Positions 1-6,052 of a stretch of DNA of 6,052 nucleotides are shown here, piece by piece (positions within the stretch are counted from its first letter, which is position 1; each line of letters opens with the position of its first letter). The stretch comes from a virus, in IMG/VR virus record IMGVR_UViG_3300020030_000055, positions 1-6,052 of that record; one strand, written 5' to 3'. The notes beneath the pieces were generated by a model, which saw only the letters and a program-made list of their open reading frames with translations, was not told where the DNA came from and did no database searches. A program made the translations under genes and the position numbers.

Positions 1-121
1 GGGTTTGCGAAATAATACCTTTAGAACCAAGCAAATTCGAGTCCGGATAGGCAGTAGCAACAGGGTAGCCATCGGTGGAGGCGCTGCCACTCTTTAAATC
101 AGAACGGATAATCTGAAAAAA
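1..121. repeat. Terminal redundancy, copy 1 (identical to 5932..6052); marks circular closure of a 5,931-nt genome
   Basis: Base-by-base comparison: gggtttgcgaaataataccttt...cagaacggataatctgaaaaaa is identical at 1-121 and 5932-6052 (offset 5931). The match runs to the last base of the window. Confidence 0.95.
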
Positions 122-859
122 GAGGTTACCGCGATTGTACGTATTATTAGAGGACGCCACAGCAGACGGATAAAATTGGCTCTCGAAATAAGCGTCGAGA
201 AACTCAAGATTACCATAGCACTGTGTGAAGAATCTGGAATCACCCGAATTATCGGGATCAAGAGTATACGCGTCGCTCGAAAATATCAGCTTGTTCGCAA
301 AAGGCCACGCGAAAGAATAAAGACCCCACTGTGAATAGCCGTAATAATTTCGAACGATGTCCCAATAAGCCAAATACGTATCGGCGTTAGACCACTGACT
401 AATAGTAGCAGTCGATGGAAGAGCGACCGAAACCAAGGGGGTACCGCCGGTATTATACTTGTTGCCAATACGCAGCCAAGAAAAAAGCGAATTCGTATAC
501 GACGCACCAAAAAAATCGGCGTTCAAGGCACCAGCAGAAGGAAATGTACTACAAATCCAATTCAGACTCAAGTCGTTCATGTCAAACTTACTGCTATTTG
601 TCCTCAACTCAGGGTGATATAGCTGCAAGGGCACCCAAAAACGATGCAAGCGGATAGTGTAAGGGTTGAATGTCGGAACGGCAAGGGGATTACTCCGAAC
701 ATCGATGCCTTGCTCAATAGAAACACGGTCCCGAGCATTAATAAAATCGATGCGCACTGGATACAAAATACCCGGTGTGCACGTGAAAGCCTTACTCTCA
801 GGAACATCATAGCGAGAGTAGCCATTTACAACGTGAGAAATAAAAGGTTGTTTTCCCAT
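1..859 (-). CDS. VP1: Major capsid protein VP1 (Microviridae F-like), 5' portion (codons 1-286). It continues through the circular junction into 5931->4982, for 602 aa in total.
   Basis: Manual translation of the minus strand from ATG (859-857) has no stop down to base 1: MGKQPFISHVVNGYSRYDVPESKAFTCTPGILYPVRIDFINARDRVSIEQGIDVRSNPLAVPTFNPYTIRLHRFWVPLQLYHPELR...VATAYPDSNLLGSKGIISQT. The ORF is absent from the supplied track because it has no stop inside the window. Frame is continuous with ORF 4982..5965: the codon starting at base 1 equals 5932, and 5965-5932=33. The ATG is the first one after an in-frame TAA (865-863). Confidence 0.93.
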   Translation of the reverse strand, partial: MGKQPFISHVVNGYSRYDVPESKAFTCTPGILYPVRIDFINARDRVSIEQGIDVRSNPLAVPTFNPYTIRLHRFWVPLQLYHPELRTNSSKFDMNDLSLNWICSTFPSAGALNADFFGASYTNSLFSWLRIGNKYNTGGTPLVSVALPSTATISQWSNADTYLAYWDIVRNYYGYSQWGLYSFAWPFANKLIFSSDAYTLDPDNSGDSRFFTQCYGNLEFLDAYFESQFYPSAVASSNNTYNRGNLFFQIIRSDLKSGSASTDGYPVATAYPDSNLLGSKGIISQT

Positions 860-862
860 AAG

Positions 863-1933
863 TTAAATAATTAGTTGAAGTTTGTAATGATCTTGCCAGA
901 ATCGAATAACATCCAAATCCAGCCAAGTAGGAGGATCAAAGTCGGGTATCCTGCGAGAAGAGGCAGAAAAACGCATTATTTGCTTTTGCTCCCACGTATA
1001 TGCATCTCTACAGGATACGGCGGAATCGAGATTGAACCGCTTAACACACAAAGACACAATACGCTTAACCAAAGAAGACTTGCTGAAATGTGCATAAGCG
1101 TCAGCAGCGGTAATCGAGCGAACAACGTCGTCTTCCGGTTTAAGATATTTAAGATAGTATCGAGGAATCGAGTAGTTATAATTGACGCGCTTCTGAAAAT
1201 CGAAATAAGACCACGTCGAAACACGGGTAGAAGGGCGAGGCATATAACCAAGAAAATCGCCAACACAAGGAGATACGAATTTTCTCGTATAGCGGCGATG
1301 TTGAAGTACTGTAGACAAAGGTGTAGCTTTTCCATTTAAAGTAACAAACTTATCCGAGACATCCTCGGGGTTAAACTGAATTTGTTTAGTAACGTATTTA
1401 ACGACATATCGCGCGCGTTTATGGGTGCCCTTTCCTAACCAGATGAAACCGAGGTCACCGACGGCTGATCGAATCTCATTGTACAAACAATTTGTTCCGA
1501 AAAGAAAGCCGTGGAAGTGAAGACGCGGCTCCGAGCCTGCTTCTGGATGAATGCCAAACTCTTGGAAAAACGCGTGTTTAAAAGAATGACCTATCTTGTG
1601 ACGAACGCGCTCGTTCCATCGTCTGATAAAACCGGACGGATCAAGAAGTGCGTCGTCGTAATACTTCGGAGCAATAGTAATGGTAATAAATATGGCCTGC
1701 CGACCCTCAGCCTTGCAACGAGCAAGTTCGCGCTCTAAACGCACGAACCAGTCATTGCGCTGGCGGCGCAGGCAGTCTTCGCATTTTCCGCAAGGCACCA
1801 TGAGCCACTGACGAGCAATATCCCAGGGACGAAGGGCTAAAGCAGACTTAGCGACATCCGAACCATTGCGACAAGGATTCTTCTTATCGAAATAGCGTCG
1901 ATTACGTATCCATATAGGAGAAGAGCAGGGCAT
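863..1933 (-). CDS. VP4: Replication initiation protein VP4 (HUH rolling-circle endonuclease, phiX174 protein A-like), 356 aa
   Basis: - Motif I-like: FITITI.
- HUH motif: LHFHGFLF (His codons at 1519-1517 and 1513-1511).
- Motif III: RARYVVKYVTK, with two Tyr three residues apart (codons 1408-1406 and 1396-1394), as in phiX174 A.
- Cys cluster PCGKCEDC near the N-terminus, common in microvirus VP4.
- Start placed at ATG 1933-1931 (MPCSSPIWI...), not at the TTG at 1954 used by the ORF track. This ATG overlaps the upstream stop as TAATG.
- Stop: TAA at 865-863. Confidence 0.93.
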   Translation of the reverse strand: MPCSSPIWIRNRRYFDKKNPCRNGSDVAKSALALRPWDIARQWLMVPCGKCEDCLRRQRNDWFVRLERELARCKAEGRQAIFITITIAPKYYDDALLDPSGFIRRWNERVRHKIGHSFKHAFFQEFGIHPEAGSEPRLHFHGFLFGTNCLYNEIRSAVGDLGFIWLGKGTHKRARYVVKYVTKQIQFNPEDVSDKFVTLNGKATPLSTVLQHRRYTRKFVSPCVGDFLGYMPRPSTRVSTWSYFDFQKRVNYNYSIPRYYLKYLKPEDDVVRSITAADAYAHFSKSSLVKRIVSLCVKRFNLDSAVSCRDAYTWEQKQIMRFSASSRRIPDFDPPTWLDLDVIRFWQDHYKLQLII

Positions 1934-2133
1934 TAGAAGAGGCTTTCGAGGCAATCAAACTTAATGTAAGGATTACTGCGACGGCATAGGGCGAGGTAAT
2001 CATTCGCAGGAGACGCGTCGAGAAACCAAGCAATGACAACTCGCTTTTTGCCACGGTACGCAGCAACAGAGTAACGAAGCGGAACGCCATTAATAATAGG
2101 AGAAGCTTTAGGTTTGAAATCAAAATAATCCAT
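1933..2133 (-). CDS. Hypothetical small protein, 66 aa, mildly basic, translationally coupled to VP4
   Basis: ATG at 2133-2131. The stop TAA (1935-1933) shares one base with the VP4 ATG (TAATG). The ORF fills the space between the terminator region and VP4. I recognise no motif in MDYFDFKPKASPIINGVPLRYSVAAYRGKKRVVIAWFLDASPANDYLALCRRSNPYIKFDCLESLF. Confidence 0.6.
   Translation of the reverse strand: MDYFDFKPKASPIINGVPLRYSVAAYRGKKRVVIAWFLDASPANDYLALCRRSNPYIKFDCLESLF
1956..1963 (-). promoter_or_regulatory. Candidate Bacteroides-type -7 promoter box (TAAGTTTG on the coding strand), 22 nt upstream of the VP4 ATG
   Basis: Plus-strand caaactta equals minus-strand TAAGTTTG, matching TAnnTTTG. It lies downstream of the terminator at 2164-2197, at a spacing similar to the intergenic box at 2925-2932 (25 nt from its ATG). 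No -33 TTTG sits at the expected distance, and the box lies in frame over K-F codons of the 66-aa ORF. Confidence 0.3.
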
Positions 2134-2163
2134 AATTCAAAAAAAAATATTGCCTTGCATTTT

Positions 2164-2197
2164 AAAAAAAACCTGCAGGAGGTTTTCCTCCCGCAGG
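2164..2197 (-). terminator. Rho-independent (intrinsic) terminator on the coding (minus) strand
   Basis: The minus strand reads CCTGCGGGAGG-AAAA-CCTCCTGCAGG followed directly by TTTTTTTT. That is an 11-bp GC-rich stem, a 4-nt loop and a U8 tail (stem 2172-2197, A-run 2164-2171 on the plus strand). The single imperfect position is a G.U wobble on the minus-strand transcript but an A.C mismatch on the plus strand, so the structure favours the coding strand. Confidence 0.8.
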
Positions 2198-2206
2198 GTT
2201 AACAAA

Positions 2207-2281
2207 TTAGAGGACTCTTCCACCAAGCGGGCGGGTAACAATCTTAGTTCCCTTTCCCTTCTTCTTTCGTCGTGCCTTCAT
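2207..2281 (-). CDS. Candidate small, highly basic peptide (24 aa, MKARRKKKGKGTKIVTRPLGGRVL). Possible J/VP8-like DNA-binding packaging protein, overlapping the 3' end of the 107-aa gene in the +1 frame.
   Basis: ATG at 2281-2279 and stop TAA at 2209-2207, 9 nt before the terminator stem. 9 of 24 residues are K/R, with several G/P, which is a composition like phiX174 J. Caveat: the region is purine-rich (GAAGAAGG..), which yields E-rich and K-rich frames at the same time, so this may be a by-product. Confidence 0.25.
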   Translation of the reverse strand: MKARRKKKGKGTKIVTRPLGGRVL

Positions 2282-2567
2282 CGTCGCTAAGATTAAATTC
2301 AAATACAAGAACGATCGTATTATCGAAGAACTCGATGCTGAAACAAGGAAGATCACCGCAGGAGGCGATAAGATTAGTAATTTCCGAATGATCGATGTAA
2401 AGCGAATCACTAATATGTGAACTCCTCAGAAACTCTGCGATGGGAAGATCGGAGACAACGCTAAAAGGAAGAGATTCGAATTGGCGATCGTTGAGACGGC
2501 CTACCTGAACGAGGTCGATTTTGAGAGCCGGACTAACCCGGCGAATGACAACATGAATCTGTGACAT
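2244..2567 (-). CDS. Hypothetical acidic protein, 107 aa (net charge about -9, acidic tail SDDEGTTKEEGKGN). Function unknown; scaffold-like or accessory.
   Basis: ATG at 2567-2565 and TAA at 2246-2244. It is the second ORF of the block bounded by the candidate promoter (2925-2955) and the terminator (2164-2197), and starts 11 nt after the previous stop. I recognise no motif. Confidence 0.7.
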   Translation of the reverse strand: MSQIHVVIRRVSPALKIDLVQVGRLNDRQFESLPFSVVSDLPIAEFLRSSHISDSLYIDHSEITNLIASCGDLPCFSIEFFDNTIVLVFEFNLSDDEGTTKEEGKGN

Positions 2568-2578
2568 GATAATGTAAT

Positions 2579-2899
2579 TTAAAATTGTGTTCGAGACTCA
2601 GCGCAAAAACGCTTCCAAGCGGCAGACTGATTGCTCCAGAAATCAGAGCCTTCGGGCGTCCGAATGAACGGAAAGGCGGCGGAGATGAGGCAGCCTGGAC
2701 CTAAGGCAGGGCAGTCGAGGACGAGCTGAATGAGGAAACGTAATCGATCGCGAAAGCTCCTATGAGACGGGTTAGCGAACTCATAATTCTCCTTAAAAGC
2801 GGAAAAAATGCCTTGACGAACGAGCCACTCGGTAAAAGCGTACTCAACGACGTCGATCGATAGATCGTCAATTCTGGATCTTTTTTTTGACTTTTTCAT
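2579..2899 (-). CDS. Hypothetical protein, 106 aa, with a Lys/Arg-rich N-terminus (MKKSKKRSR) and a C-terminal FPFIRTPEGSDFW....W motif
   Basis: This is the track ORF 2579..3190 trimmed to the first ATG downstream of the VP2 stop (ATG 2899-2897, in frame since 3190-2899=291). The upstream 97 codons overlap VP2 or the T-rich intergenic region and look non-coding. A TAnnTTTG/TTTG promoter-like pair precedes the ORF. Stop TAA at 2581-2579. Confidence 0.7.
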   Translation of the reverse strand: MKKSKKRSRIDDLSIDVVEYAFTEWLVRQGIFSAFKENYEFANPSHRSFRDRLRFLIQLVLDCPALGPGCLISAAFPFIRTPEGSDFWSNQSAAWKRFCAESRTQF

Positions 2900-2924
2900 A
2901 GTAATGCGGTTATTGGTTACGACG

Positions 2925-2955
2925 CAAATGTACAATAAAAAACCGGAACTCCAAA
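2925..2955 (-). promoter_or_regulatory. Candidate Bacteroidota-type promoter (-33 TTTG, 19-nt spacer, -7 TACATTTG) in the VP2/106-aa intergenic region
   Basis: The minus strand reads TTTG(2955-2952)-gagttccggttttttattg-TACATTTG(2932-2925), with the ATG 25 nt downstream. This matches the Bacteroides fragilis primary-sigma consensus TTTG / TAnnTTTG. It sits in one of the only two sizeable non-coding gaps of the genome (2900-2978). Confidence 0.45.
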
Positions 2956-2978
2956 AAAAAAGCGAAAAAACAACACCT

Positions 2979-4346
2979 TTAACGAGTTCTACGAGTATTA
3001 TTATACGAGCTTGAATGACCACTACGAGACATCTCCGTTTTCGCATAACCAACAACATTTCCGCCCGAATCGTAACGCGTCGTGAGCGAAGTTCCGGCAG
3101 AGCTATTCGACGATCCTCCAGCAGAAATAGAGCTGGCGGCACGCGACATGCCTCCACGAATAATGCCGGCACCGGCGACACTGGCAGCAACGCCTATAAG
3201 AGCCTTCGAAATCTCAACATAAGGATCAAGCTTCGCATTACGAAGGGAAACGCGGGCCTGCTCGGGAAGAAACTCAGAAGCATTCGCTTGATTTATAACA
3301 GTCTTATCGTGAAAATCCTTAAGAGACAGCGAGACTTTGAAAGAAGGAGGGCCGGGGTTGGCGCGAACGATAGGATTAGAGCTTCGGAGATTCTTTTCGT
3401 ATTGAGGATTAGGAACTTCAACATCAAAGCGCTTATCCCAATTACGCGAAAGCTCGTTGGCGGTGTCGAGATTATCAAGGCGAAGCGATTGAATCACCTC
3501 ACGAGCTTGTTCGCCAAGAGTATGATTGAGTGCGCCCTGCGTATTCATCATAAAAGACTGAGCAGACATCAACTTGCCTAAATTCTCGTTTTCGATACCC
3601 AAACGCTTAACCTCTGCGGCAACTAAGGCGGCTTGATTTTTTTTCTCATCGATAGCACTCAGAAGGGTAGCATCGGAAATAAATCGATTATTTTTTTCTA
3701 TATCCTCCTGAACCTTAAGAACATCGCGGGCGGCTAAATTATGTTTAGTAATCGCTTCATCAAGAGCCACGCGAGCTTGAGCCATAAGGGTATATAGTTG
3801 ATTTCCGACGTTTTGATCATTAATCGATTGAGCCTCGGCGTTATCACGATTAGCGGCGGCGGCATTACGATCGACAGTGGACTGCGCAACCATGTTTTGT
3901 GCAATGGCAGTGGGGTCAACGACAGGAGCGGCGCCGGCGCCGACAAGGGAGCCGCCGGAAGGGCCGGAAGCAGAGGGCATGGGGGCGGAACCACCTGACA
4001 TAGTAGCGTTTACGCCAACACCTGAAGATCCAAGAACAGCGGCGGGTGTTACACCGGCTTTCAAATAACGATCGAAAACCTTCGAAGGATCATTATAGGA
4101 GTTTTCATAATCAAACTGTTTCTGCCAATTAGCATAGGAAAGCTCAGATTGTTTTTGCATTTGCTCTAAAGCATACCTCTGCTGAAGAGCCATTTGTTTT
4201 TGCTGAAATCGCCACTGACGGCGAGCATTCATGCCTCCGAAAAGCTGGCCGAGGGCGCCGGAGATTAAACCGGAAGTACCGGTAGACGCAGCCGACTGGC
4301 CGAGAGCCTGGCCGAAGGAAGCGGCAGCAGCAACAGGAACAGGCAT
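2979..4346 (-). CDS. VP2: VP2-like minor capsid / DNA pilot protein (phiX174 H analogue), 455 aa
   Basis: ATG at 4346-4344 and TAA at 2981-2979.
- N-terminus is Gly/Ala-rich and hydrophobic: MPVPVAAAASFGQALGQSAASTGTSGLISGALGQLFGG.
- The block YENSYNDPSKVFDRYLKAGVTPAAVLG resembles the AG(L/V)NP-type block I associate with microvirus VP2.
- A long Gly/Ser/Ala/Pro linker follows.
- The central part is Q/N/A/E/K-rich and looks helical.
- The C-terminal segment is Gly/Ala-rich: ALIGVAASVAGAGIIRGG.
Position (downstream of VP1) and size fit VP2 of Alpavirinae-like phages. Confidence 0.82.
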   Translation of the reverse strand: MPVPVAAAASFGQALGQSAASTGTSGLISGALGQLFGGMNARRQWRFQQKQMALQQRYALEQMQKQSELSYANWQKQFDYENSYNDPSKVFDRYLKAGVTPAAVLGSSGVGVNATMSGGSAPMPSASGPSGGSLVGAGAAPVVDPTAIAQNMVAQSTVDRNAAAANRDNAEAQSINDQNVGNQLYTLMAQARVALDEAITKHNLAARDVLKVQEDIEKNNRFISDATLLSAIDEKKNQAALVAAEVKRLGIENENLGKLMSAQSFMMNTQGALNHTLGEQAREVIQSLRLDNLDTANELSRNWDKRFDVEVPNPQYEKNLRSSNPIVRANPGPPSFKVSLSLKDFHDKTVINQANASEFLPEQARVSLRNAKLDPYVEISKALIGVAASVAGAGIIRGGMSRAASSISAGGSSNSSAGTSLTTRYDSGGNVVGYAKTEMSRSGHSSSYNNTRRTR

Positions 4347-4347
4347 A

Positions 4348-4650
4348 CTACATGTGAGTTAAATTATTAGAACGAATAATGTAATCAACGCGAACTGTGT
4401 CGATATGAACGCCACTACGCTGCATTCTGGCTTGGGCCGAACACGAAGCGAGGAAGAAGGCGGCCAATGCAGCAATGATGGACGAAACGAGCGTCCAAAA
4501 AGCCTTCGACTTGTAAAAAGGCTGTTTAGTATCAGGCATGGTAGTAAAATTTAAAGAACGATAGAAAAATGCGCGACCTCTCCCGCAGTCGTTACCAATA
4601 ACCTCAAGCAATTCACGCACTCTTGCAAGAGGGGTTCGCGCACGTAGCAT
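4348..4650 (-). CDS. Small membrane protein with a lipoprotein-type signal (lipobox LAS|C). 100 aa from ATG 4650, or a 63-aa prolipoprotein from ATG 4539 giving a 31-aa mature peptide.
   Basis: Verified translation from ATG 4539-4537: MPDTKQPFYKSK-AFWTLVSSIIAALAAFFLAS-CSAQARMQRSGVHIDTVRVDYIIRSNNLTHM. It shows a positively charged n-region, a hydrophobic h-region and an L-A-S-C lipobox ([LVI][ASTVI][GAS]C). The stop TAG (4350-4348) lies 1 nt before the VP2 ATG. This is the only long open frame in this non-overlapping slot. The upstream 37 codons (from ATG 4650-4648) are Arg-rich and GC-rich, and their coding status is uncertain. Confidence 0.6.
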   Translation of the reverse strand: MLRARTPLARVRELLEVIGNDCGRGRAFFYRSLNFTTMPDTKQPFYKSKAFWTLVSSIIAALAAFFLASCSAQARMQRSGVHIDTVRVDYIIRSNNLTHM

Positions 4651-4672
4651 ATATCGTCAAGTAAAGGATATA

Positions 4673-4969
4673 CTATTTTTCTTCAGGGTTGGTAGGATTC
4701 GAAGTAGGTTTTGACTTATCGAGCTGAGAATCAATAAGTTCCTGACCGACCTCGAGACCGTCAAACTTATCCATACGAGAAAAGGAGTTAGGATCAAAAT
4801 CAATCTCGGGGTTAAACTTTTCACCCTTATCGAAATCAGAGGAGGAAGCCTCGACGTCTGGGCGACCGGGGAGAACGTCGACGGATCCTGAACCATCAAG
4901 AACGGACAAAATACGCTGACCACGCGAAATATACGCGGGAGTATCCTCAAGGAGCCAATCAAGTGCCAT
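4673..4969 (-). CDS. Hypothetical strongly acidic protein, 98 aa; possible internal scaffolding (VP3-like) protein
   Basis: ATG at 4969-4967, 12 nt after the VP1 stop, and TAG at 4675-4673. About 21 D/E against about 10 K/R residues (MALDWLLEDTPAYISRGQRILSVLDGSGSVDVLPGRPDVEASSSDFDKGEKFNPEIDFDPNSF...). An ATG start and sensible composition favour it over the overlapping 116-aa TTG-initiated frame. The scaffold assignment rests on composition and position only. Confidence 0.65.
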   Translation of the reverse strand: MALDWLLEDTPAYISRGQRILSVLDGSGSVDVLPGRPDVEASSSDFDKGEKFNPEIDFDPNSFSRMDKFDGLEVGQELIDSQLDKSKPTSNPTNPEEK

Positions 4970-4981
4970 AGAATCAATAGT

Positions 4982-6052
4982 TTAGCGATTAGACAAACGG
5001 GTCGCAAAGGTTTTATTAATAAGACTCTTCTTTTGTACCGAGTAGGACATATTCACAAAGAAATTATCCTCCACTTTAGAGAAAAAAGGAGAGTTAACCT
5101 GCGCCATATCAGTAAAAAGTATCGGATAGTAGTAAGATTCGGGCAGGGAGCCAGTACCACTGGAGGTCATAACAGCACGCTGTTGGATCCAATAGGCGTA
5201 AAGAGGAATACCAGAGCCTCCTTCAGCGGCGCTTTTATGATAGGCTTGGAGTTGACCAAGAGCCTCGTCATAAGAGGAGCGAAACTCATTAAAGCATGGC
5301 TCGGTAGCAAAACTACTGCCAGGATTAGCATTAAACGCTATACGAAAGCTCGGGATGTCCTGATAACCAATATCATTGTAAATGGGATTGAAGTAATCTG
5401 AGCCCATATAATTAAGATAGTCCGGCTTAATGAAACTCCAGTAGTAAACAGGCCTAATGCTCAACATATCAATCATGTAGCCAGGCTCGCGGAAATAATA
5501 AGACTGACGACGGCCGAGGCGATCGTTAAAGGCTATAGCACCACCTTGCTGGCCAAGAGGCGGCAGACTGTAAGTATCTCCTTCAAAGTTGTTCGCACCT
5601 GATTGATTCATAATAATCTGAACGTTAATCGTCTGCGAGGCGGAAAATAAAAGCTTCGGCCTATCGACATGTTCGATTTTTGAAGCAAAAAAAGTCTCCA
5701 ACCAATCGCTATAACGAGAACCTCCAGCGCCAAGCAAGTCTTTATACTCCTGAAGACGAGAGGCAATAGCCAACTGCGGGATAGTATTAACACCCGACAT
5801 GGAAACGGCCGAAGTCGAACCTACGGGGATAAGACGACTAAACCGGTCGGGATTCGAGGGTATAACGGCCATTGGGTGCGCCACTAAAAAATAAGCCAAA
5901 GCTGAAGCGGCGGTAGAACTGGTAGTGGGAAGGGTTTGCGAAATAATACCTTTAGAACCAAGCAAATTCGAGTCCGGATAGGCAGTAGCAACAGGGTAGC
6001 CATCGGTGGAGGCGCTGCCACTCTTTAAATCAGAACGGATAATCTGAAAAAA
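4982..6052 (-). CDS. VP1: Major capsid protein VP1, 3' portion (open at the right window edge; 5932-6052 duplicates 1-121); stop TAA at 4984-4982
   Basis: The track ORF 4982..5965 begins at an internal TTG, and the frame stays open upstream to 6052. Segments resemble conserved blocks of Microviridae capsid proteins as I recall them: RLQEYKDLLGAGGSRYSDWLETFF (cf. the ..GG.RY.E...FG block), FREPGYMIDMLSIRPVYYW, and EPCFNEFRSSYDEALG. The combined length of 602 aa suits the larger (Alpavirinae-like) VP1 proteins. Confidence 0.93.
   Translation of the reverse strand, partial: FFQIIRSDLKSGSASTDGYPVATAYPDSNLLGSKGIISQTLPTTSSTAASALAYFLVAHPMAVIPSNPDRFSRLIPVGSTSAVSMSGVNTIPQLAIASRLQEYKDLLGAGGSRYSDWLETFFASKIEHVDRPKLLFSASQTINVQIIMNQSGANNFEGDTYSLPPLGQQGGAIAFNDRLGRRQSYYFREPGYMIDMLSIRPVYYWSFIKPDYLNYMGSDYFNPIYNDIGYQDIPSFRIAFNANPGSSFATEPCFNEFRSSYDEALGQLQAYHKSAAEGGSGIPLYAYWIQQRAVMTSSGTGSLPESYYYPILFTDMAQVNSPFFSKVEDNFFVNMSYSVQKKSLINKTFATRLSNR
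5932..6052. repeat. Terminal redundancy, copy 2 (identical to 1..121); assembly overlap of a circular genome
   Basis: Same comparison as copy 1: 121/121 identical. The repeat lies inside the capsid ORF and keeps its reading frame. Confidence 0.95.

Follow-up and report, generated by a model that had tools for sequence, protein, structure and literature searches.

A constrained small-lipoprotein gene upstream of VP2 in gut microviruses, a candidate envelope-directed lysis or release effector

Colicin lysis proteins, or bacteriocin release proteins (BRP; Lysis_col, PF02402), are tiny prolipoproteins of Enterobacteria plasmids. Their lipopeptides of ∼28–33 residues act on the envelope to release macromolecular cargo, their genes stand at operon ends behind a terminator-like hairpin, and their signal peptide itself matters for activity. 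Llp of T5 and Cor of phi80, T1, and N15 are small, receptor-blocking phage lipoproteins that face the periplasm, with folded domains of roughly 60 residues, encoded in linkage with host-recognition genes. Rz1-type o-spanins and the u-spanin gp11 of T1 are small outer-membrane phage lipoproteins used in lysis; besides an endolysin, spanins depend on an inner-membrane partner or on a C-terminal transmembrane domain. Protein E of phiX174, a single-gene lysis protein that inhibits MraY, is encoded within gene D by overprinting, lacks a lipobox, and acts from the membrane via its N-terminal transmembrane domain. Finally, Entericidin B is a chromosomal, amphipathic, helical bacteriolytic lipoprotein of enterobacteria, toxic to the envelope, with a precursor of under 50 amino acids (aa) and a mature part of ∼25–30 residues. 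Here we describe a gene for a 63-aa prolipoprotein immediately upstream of VP2, the gene of the DNA pilot protein, in the virus record IMGVR_UViG_3300020030_000055 (positions 1 to 6,052; this whole stretch of 6,052 nucleotides (nt) is referred to as the window). The gene belongs to a real, previously undescribed family of small lipoproteins that is strongly constrained and horizontally mobile. Its product is a candidate envelope-directed lysis or release effector, a reading to which we give a probability of roughly 0.4.

By analogy, the microvirus lipoprotein comes closest to the colicin lysis proteins and the Llp-type blockers, being a member of neither family. With BRP it shares the form of a tiny prolipoprotein, a predicted lipopeptide of 31 residues (within ∼27–35), a position behind a terminator-like hairpin, and a signal peptide that is more conserved than the mature part; the role of acting on the envelope to release macromolecular cargo may be similar as well. 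Unlike BRP, it is encoded by a Bacteroidales microvirus, its signal peptide is much longer, and 17 family members gave no Lysis_col (Pfam) match at E up to 10. As in Llp and Cor, the product would be a small phage-encoded lipoprotein facing the periplasm, and its gene is linked to host-recognition genes. However, the peptide has only 31 residues without a confident fold, its conservation does not track capsid divergence, and no similarity to Llp or Cor was found in Pfam, PHROG, NCBIfam, or PDB-sequence searches. The likeness to spanins is that of a small phage lipoprotein possibly used in lysis, but neither an inner-membrane partner, nor a C-terminal transmembrane domain, nor an endolysin is recognisable in the microvirus genome. 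In particular, no ORF (open reading frame) of the genome has the i-spanin layout of an N-terminal transmembrane domain and a periplasmic coiled coil; there is no Pfam Rz1 match, and the peptide is not proline-rich. A small membrane-targeted microvirus protein with a highly conserved transmembrane helix, in a genome with no recognisable muralytic enzyme, recalls phiX174 E, whereas the lipoprotein gene does not share its stretch of the genome with another gene, and its product has an invariant lipobox Cys. The likeness to Entericidin B is that of a small lipopeptide, and family searches detected no similarity.

The earlier note on this DNA had described a K-rich n-region, a hydrophobic stretch, a lipobox LAS-C, and a 31-residue mature peptide, and these are present exactly as stated (Table 1). 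Judging from its residues, the product would be a bacterial-type lipoprotein precursor: a long, basic n-region, which is probably amphipathic, is followed by the hydrophobic stretch, the lipobox, and the conserved Cys. The 63-aa form passes the PROSITE-type rule for prokaryotic lipoproteins ([LVI][ASTVI][GAS]-C, with the Cys within residues 15–35 and a K in the first seven residues), its Cys being residue 33. One ORF of the genome matches this rule, compared to 0.14 expected from shuffled genomes, and the signal is kept in hundreds of homologues; therefore, it is not a chance occurrence. In the basic mature peptide, hydrophobic residues alternate with polar ones, and the Cys is not followed by the acidic residues that mark surface export in Bacteroidota. 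AlphaFold2, run with the family alignment, predicts a helix over residues 12–33 with pLDDT (predicted local distance difference test) above 90.

The gene had been placed at 4348–4650, in the 100-aa version of the ORF, and these boundaries have to be corrected. In 65 related whole genomes, variability (entropy) at the three codon positions of the 63-aa gene is 0.26/0.13/1.08, a strong coding signature. Similarly, in 31 distinct related loci it is 0.17/0.08/0.97 from Met38 (in the 100-aa numbering) onward, with the ratio of nonsynonymous to synonymous substitution (dN/dS) of 0.04. The 37 codons upstream show a flat 0.19/0.24/0.27 in the same loci, and their "synonymous" divergence is several-fold lower than the ∼0.6 of the neighbouring genes (Table 1). 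The in-frame ATG at −37 is present in only ∼30 of the 65 genomes; a stop lies four codons upstream of Met38 in 22 of them, and the frame is closed by stops in roughly half. In more distant relatives the gene starts at the equivalent of Met38. Taken together, the missing periodicity, the closed frame, and the distant starts mean that the real coding sequence is 4539..4348, not 4650..4348, and the 100-aa ORF was rejected. Our first protein search did yield 423 homologues, the best 120 of which were all called as 100 aa, and in the homologues so called, substitutions in residues 1–37 looked radical; we ascribe this to gene-caller and ranking bias, the "100-aa proteins" of the databases being a gene-caller artefact. 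Moreover, the 100-aa form breaks the lipoprotein rule, as its Cys becomes residue 70. That the real product is the 100-aa one, or that the ORF is a chance open frame, is thus hardly credible, the latter also in view of the coding signature of the 63-aa part.

The 63-aa ORF, Cys33, and the junction with VP2, where a single nucleotide separates the stop from the ATG, are each intact in all 65 genomes, and the same TAG-1 nt-ATG arrangement is found in MT135342 and LT986678. The lipoprotein (dN/dS 0.062) is the second most constrained protein of the genome, after Rep outside its special region discussed below (0.04–0.06). It is followed by the acidic 98-aa protein (0.085), a J-like peptide (0.09), VP1 (0.10), o66 (0.16), o107 (0.21), VP2 (0.25), and o106 (0.29); thus, VP1 and VP2 diversify while the lipoprotein does not. 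Within the gene, constraint on the signal peptide (0.03 in the 31 loci) is no weaker than on the mature part (0.06). Conservation and synteny upstream of VP2, purifying selection, and retention of the lipobox Cys, the checks that the earlier note had proposed, all came out in its favour, and none of the outcomes it had set against its idea (a non-conserved Cys, a disrupted ORF, no purifying selection) was observed.

A profile search of 1.84 billion representatives returned 80 clusters (at 50% identity) with E of 1e-3 or better. A second subfamily is distinguished by its mature peptide, TTRHYVVQSASS..GDTTRTTITYEQVGNFKRP, and the signal peptide is common to both subfamilies almost residue for residue. 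In a 17-member alignment, residues S11, K12, F14, W15, T16, L17, A24, L25, A27, F29, C33, D47, and Y53 are invariant across the mature types A and B, and therefore the two types are homologous. Distant members have quite different, equally long signal peptides, and retain the mature peptide and a lipobox with a small residue before the Cys. Overall, the lipobox [AGS]-C is retained in 217 of the 226 family members, with S in 187, G in 22, and A in 8 cases at position −1; position +2 is occupied by S, T, or A, and never by an acidic residue. The exceptions are one C-to-S replacement, truncated or frameshifted fragments, two doubtful members, and P0215, whose PSC lipobox was missed by the pattern. 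The most common length of the mature peptide is 31 residues (135 members), the next being 35 (25 members).

These data bear on whether the precursor is cleaved at all. It could be an uncleaved bitopic inner-membrane protein with a signal anchor, whose conserved transmembrane helix would act like an amurin or a holin and whose Cys would not be lipidated. The 32-residue signal region with its 20-residue hydrophobic stretch is long for signal peptidase II; the AlphaFold2 helix, the ten residues of helix and n-region that do not vary between subfamilies, and the dN/dS of the signal peptide, lower than that of the mature part, would also agree with an anchor. Still, essentially every intact member has a Cys preceded by a small residue, even where the hydrophobic regions are unrelated, and the mature peptide itself is conserved across those members, so that we consider an anchor quite improbable.

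Searches with the protein and with the 17-member alignment against Pfam, PHROGs, NCBIfam, PADLOC, and PDB sequences gave only noise or matches at the level of the signal peptide, and we found no paper describing a microvirus lipoprotein. Among automatic names in nr, one entry is called "MAG TPA: lipoprotein [Microviridae sp.]" and another "chitin synthase regulator". The contigs of ten members were looked up, and all were ∼6 kb or less. The family is confined to microviruses from animal gut samples, with Bacteroidales as the one identified host.

Three observations concern the gene in databases and in other lineages. First, the n-region types (MSDTKQPFYKSKAF.. and M..K..L.SKKF..) and the mature types A and B occur in all combinations (P0137, P0145–P0147), and hence there has been recombination inside this ∼190-nt gene. 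Second, in MG945498, MG945680, MG945683, and MG945716, features annotated as "similar to VP2" start upstream and swallow the lipoprotein ORF, which is unannotated in many other GenBank records; thus, the family has been systematically mis-annotated or missed. Third, in another lineage (L085, PQ006845 4688–5320; L091, ∼5974–6585; P0153–P0204) the lipoprotein ORF has no stop after the mature peptide and continues for ∼140 further S/L/P-rich codons over a gene in another frame, ending in a J-like basic tail, ..RRGGRRGKGRPKxKxIPLGGSHL. At 50% identity, this putative extended form of 172–223 aa comprises about 25 clusters.

Among GenBank microviruses, the gene directly precedes VP2 in all 44 whose VP1 is at least 53% identical to that of the window (weak tblastn cases were confirmed by looking at the ORFs), and one relative at 45% VP1 identity has it as well. 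Moreover, a lineage with VP1 only 28% identical (partial alignment) has a 67–75% identical copy, located just upstream of Rep and not next to VP2. Therefore, the gene is a self-contained module that has moved between microvirus lineages. The latter lineage includes a prophage integrated in Alistipes montrealensis (L091; NZ_JAGYXY010000001.1, ∼125.5–137.7 kb) with the gene order lipoprotein-Rep-VP1-acidic-VP2. This is the only match to the lipoprotein family among 185,579 species genomes of bacteria, and a VP1-based search of the same genomes for prophages of the window's own clade found none. At least one host is a Bacteroidales diderm.

The earlier note had also named superinfection exclusion as a possible role. 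Like T5 Llp or Cor, the lipoprotein could mask an outer-membrane receptor or a DNA-entry protein, preventing re-infection and the loss of progeny on debris or vesicles. It is a small phage lipoprotein without a surface-export signal. Its gene is absent from a sister clade, has been transferred between lineages, and so resembles an accessory gene, and one copy resides in the integrated Alistipes prophage. In addition, the gene lies between the capsid and pilot genes, whose proteins set the host range in phiHBP1 (PMC13064476). On the other hand, the lipoprotein is nearly invariant while VP1 and VP2 diversify, and its identity of 67–75% across lineages with 28% identical capsids is unlike that of a receptor-specific blocker. 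With 31 residues and no predicted fold, the mature peptide is only half as large as Llp or Cor; the window's own clade yielded no prophages, and microvirus exclusion has reportedly been mapped to hypervariable parts of the pilot protein. On balance, we consider receptor masking or exclusion a rather unlikely explanation, if a serious one.

The earlier note further held that the lysis genes of microviruses are essentially unknown outside the phiX174 group. This was too strong: several microvirus families, and phiHBP1, a microvirus of Bacteroides fragilis, carry genes of the M15 peptidase or endolysin-like kind for which a lysis function has been predicted (PMC9239249, PMC11499846, PMC13064476). 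Its statement that this genome encodes no endolysin or holin holds for recognisable families, since no ORF matched a peptidase, endolysin, or holin family in Pfam, PHROGs, or NCBIfam, but it does not cover a hydrophobic +1-frame ORF within Rep, which could be a membrane effector. In the 65 genomes, third-position variability of Rep collapses over codons ∼197–318, while the first and second positions there are, if anything, less conserved. The synonymous divergence (pS) is 0.24 in codons 200–318 compared to 0.68 elsewhere in Rep. This local loss of synonymous variation is real, and it is all that counts as evidence here; an overprinted gene and a cis-acting element are both possible causes. The +1 ORF coincides with the interval, is intact in 64 of the 65 genomes, and long +1 ORFs occur in the Rep genes of all relatives in the wider clade.

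If this ORF, or a host autolytic pathway, were the main agent of lysis, the lipoprotein would be an accessory envelope factor that assists, for example, in an outer-membrane step, vesiculation, or gut fitness. The match between the boundaries of the low-pS interval and those of the 119-aa ORF points in this direction, as does the existence of relatives without the lipoprotein; overprinted membrane proteins have a precedent in phiX174, with E in gene D and K in genes A/C. However, codon usage predicts an open +1 frame of this kind (one at least as long arose in 378 of 2000 synonymous shuffles), and the alternative-frame dN/dS is 0.71, so that a cis-acting DNA element is equally possible. The very strong constraint on the lipoprotein also argues for more than a marginal role, and we regard a merely assisting one as unlikely.

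We return to the lysis or release effector as the favoured reading. By established lipoprotein biogenesis, the precursor would be inserted by Sec into the inner membrane of the Bacteroidales host, Cys33 would be diacylglycerylated by Lgt, and signal peptidase II (LspA) would cleave before it. The basic 31-residue lipopeptide, carrying no acidic surface-export signal after the Cys, would stay tethered on the periplasmic side. Expression would be late and at a modest level, because the gene sits behind a hairpin and T-run and abuts VP2 translationally. We infer that the lipopeptide, possibly together with its unusually conserved signal-peptide helix, may then act like BRP, hitting a conserved component of the host envelope and weakening the envelope so that virions are released, with no specific receptor being blocked. 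A conserved envelope target rather than a receptor-specific blocker is suggested by the core status of the gene in its clade, by constraint tighter than that on the capsid, and by its near-unchanged state across unrelated capsids. The lack of a recognisable muralytic enzyme, together with the BRP-like mature size and the functional-looking signal peptide, points the same way.

Several observations weigh against an effector of lysis or release. Three relatives at ∼40% VP1 identity do without the gene and keep the gene order and the upstream element; since this sister group has the same genome plan, the lipoprotein gene is not indispensable to this genome design. (No lysis domain was recognised in the small ORFs of these relatives.) The low synonymous divergence in Rep makes it less safe to assume that the genome has no other envelope effector, and the +1 ORF there could be a rival one in the membrane, of the E/K type. 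For the mature peptide, AlphaFold2 yields no confident fold (pLDDT below 50), and no homology to any lysis family was found in Pfam, PHROGs, NCBIfam, or PDB sequences. Finally, the mobility between lineages and the prophage copy fit an accessory exclusion gene equally well. More tentatively still, the 31-residue lipopeptide, possibly with the signal-peptide helix, might form a class of its own among single-gene lysis proteins: a lipoprotein "amurin" that targets a conserved Bacteroidales envelope machine from the periplasmic side, and whose gene is a self-contained cassette exchanged between lineages with capsids as little as 28% identical.

The 37 non-coding codons upstream of the gene overlie a structured element that is conserved more strongly than any coding sequence, with variability near zero and no periodicity. 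Its consensus consists of a box CTTTACTTGA(CG/TA)ATATATGCTACG, a ∼75-nt hairpin closed by GTGCGCGR/YCGCGCAT, a T-run, and TCTATCGTTCTTTA. The closing stem in the window has a compensatory A-T for G-C, and overall 12 of 20 predicted pairs show compensatory changes, although single-sequence folding z-scores are weak (∼ −1.6). The region is 83–88% identical at the DNA level in otherwise diverged, unannotated stretches of GenBank microviruses. In relatives without the lipoprotein gene the element stands directly before VP2, and the lineage whose Rep is very different does not have it. No Rfam match and no tRNA (ARAGORN) was found in it. We take its ACTTGAT(A) core to recall the phiX174 origin nick region, and the hairpin with the T-run looks like a terminator or a complementary-strand start. 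Between the VP1-scaffold and VP2 units, the element may serve as a replication origin and/or a terminator-attenuator.

The circular genome is 5,931 nt long, and the window reads through it with a 121-nt terminal repeat. A circular genome of ∼6 kb together with genes for an F-type capsid, a pilot protein, and Rep identifies it as a member of Microviridae. Every gene is on the minus strand, and families were assigned to the ORFs with Pfam and PHROGs (Table 1). The acidic 98-aa protein has no family match in Pfam, PHROGs, or NCBIfam. The genes of this genome have no Shine-Dalgarno sequences, which would fit a Bacteroidales host.

Table 1. Features of the window discussed in the text (all coordinates refer to the window).
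Feature	Position	Strand	Properties
VP1	862 across junction to 4982	−	603 aa; Phage_F (Pfam), phrog_514
Acidic 98-aa protein gene, probable scaffold	4969..4673	−	Upstream of the lipoprotein gene; coding periodicity
Structured non-coding element	4550..4690	−	Box CTTTACTTGACGATATATGCTACG (4666..4643), hairpin with 8-bp GC stem (4643..4569), T-run, TCTATCGTTCTTTAAA
37-codon upstream open frame, outside the gene	4650..4540	−	No codon periodicity; pS 0.13–0.14; dN/dS 0.5–0.6
Prolipoprotein gene	4539..4348	−	63 codons and TAG stop (4350..4348); ATG at 4539; 192 nt
Predicted signal peptide, codons 1–32	4539..4444	−	12-residue n-region MPDTKQPFYKSK, net charge +2; 20-residue uncharged hydrophobic region AFWTLVSSIIAALAAFF, ending L-A-S
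Lipobox L30-A31-S32-C33	4452..4441	−	PROSITE-type rule match
Predicted mature 31-residue lipopeptide CSAQARMQRSGVHIDTVRVDYIIRSNNLTHM	4443..4351	−	dN/dS 0.06
Junction TAG-T-ATG of the lipoprotein gene and VP2	4344..4350	−	VP2 ATG at 4346, 1 nt after the stop; tight or coupled translation
VP2, DNA pilot protein	4346..2979	−	phrog_8689 pilot protein, E = 4.8e-6; shares a transcription or translation unit with the lipoprotein gene, which it follows
Three small ORFs	between VP2 and Rep	−	
Rep/VP4	1954..863	−	REP_ORF2-G2P (Pfam), phrog_942
+1-frame hydrophobic ORF in Rep	1335..976	−	119 aa, two hydrophobic segments; coincides with the low-pS interval

Several further observations were made elsewhere in the genome. 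A mini-ORF, MKARRKKKGKGTKIVTRPLGGRVL, at 2207–2281 on the minus strand overlaps the end of the 107-aa ORF, has coding periodicity (0.22/0.17/0.92) and dN/dS of 0.09, and is kept in PQ006896. It resembles protein J of phiX174, a small basic DNA-binding protein, and is unannotated in the related GenBank records inspected. The Bacteroides-type promoter consensus (TTTG..TAnnTTTG) has a single full match in the genome, at 2955..2925 on the minus strand, between the VP2 stop and the 106-aa ORF with a basic N-terminus (2902..2579), and thus none upstream of the lipoprotein gene. The −7 box of this promoter by itself is not enriched (seven found in the genome compared to four expected), and a sigma-70 promoter scan of the element upstream of the lipoprotein gene stayed at the chance level. 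The boxes TAAGTTTG precede Rep (1963..1956) and, close to its ATG, the +1 ORF in Rep (1352..1345), their counts not being statistically enriched.

Microviruses outside the phiX174 group are among the most abundant phages of the mammalian gut. The 192-nt gene described here, core to a large gut clade, is a very small, concrete test object for how such viruses leave their hosts. This status, a constraint above that of the capsid, and its presence in very distant lineages point to a conserved target in the Bacteroidales envelope. Should the product be lytic, it would be the first single-gene lysis protein of the lipoprotein type, and may serve as a probe of, or an antibacterial lead against, a Bacteroidales envelope process; as an exclusion factor, it would be the first such lipoprotein in a single-stranded DNA phage. 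In either case, automated annotations that give the 100-aa form or call the protein "hypothetical" should be corrected.

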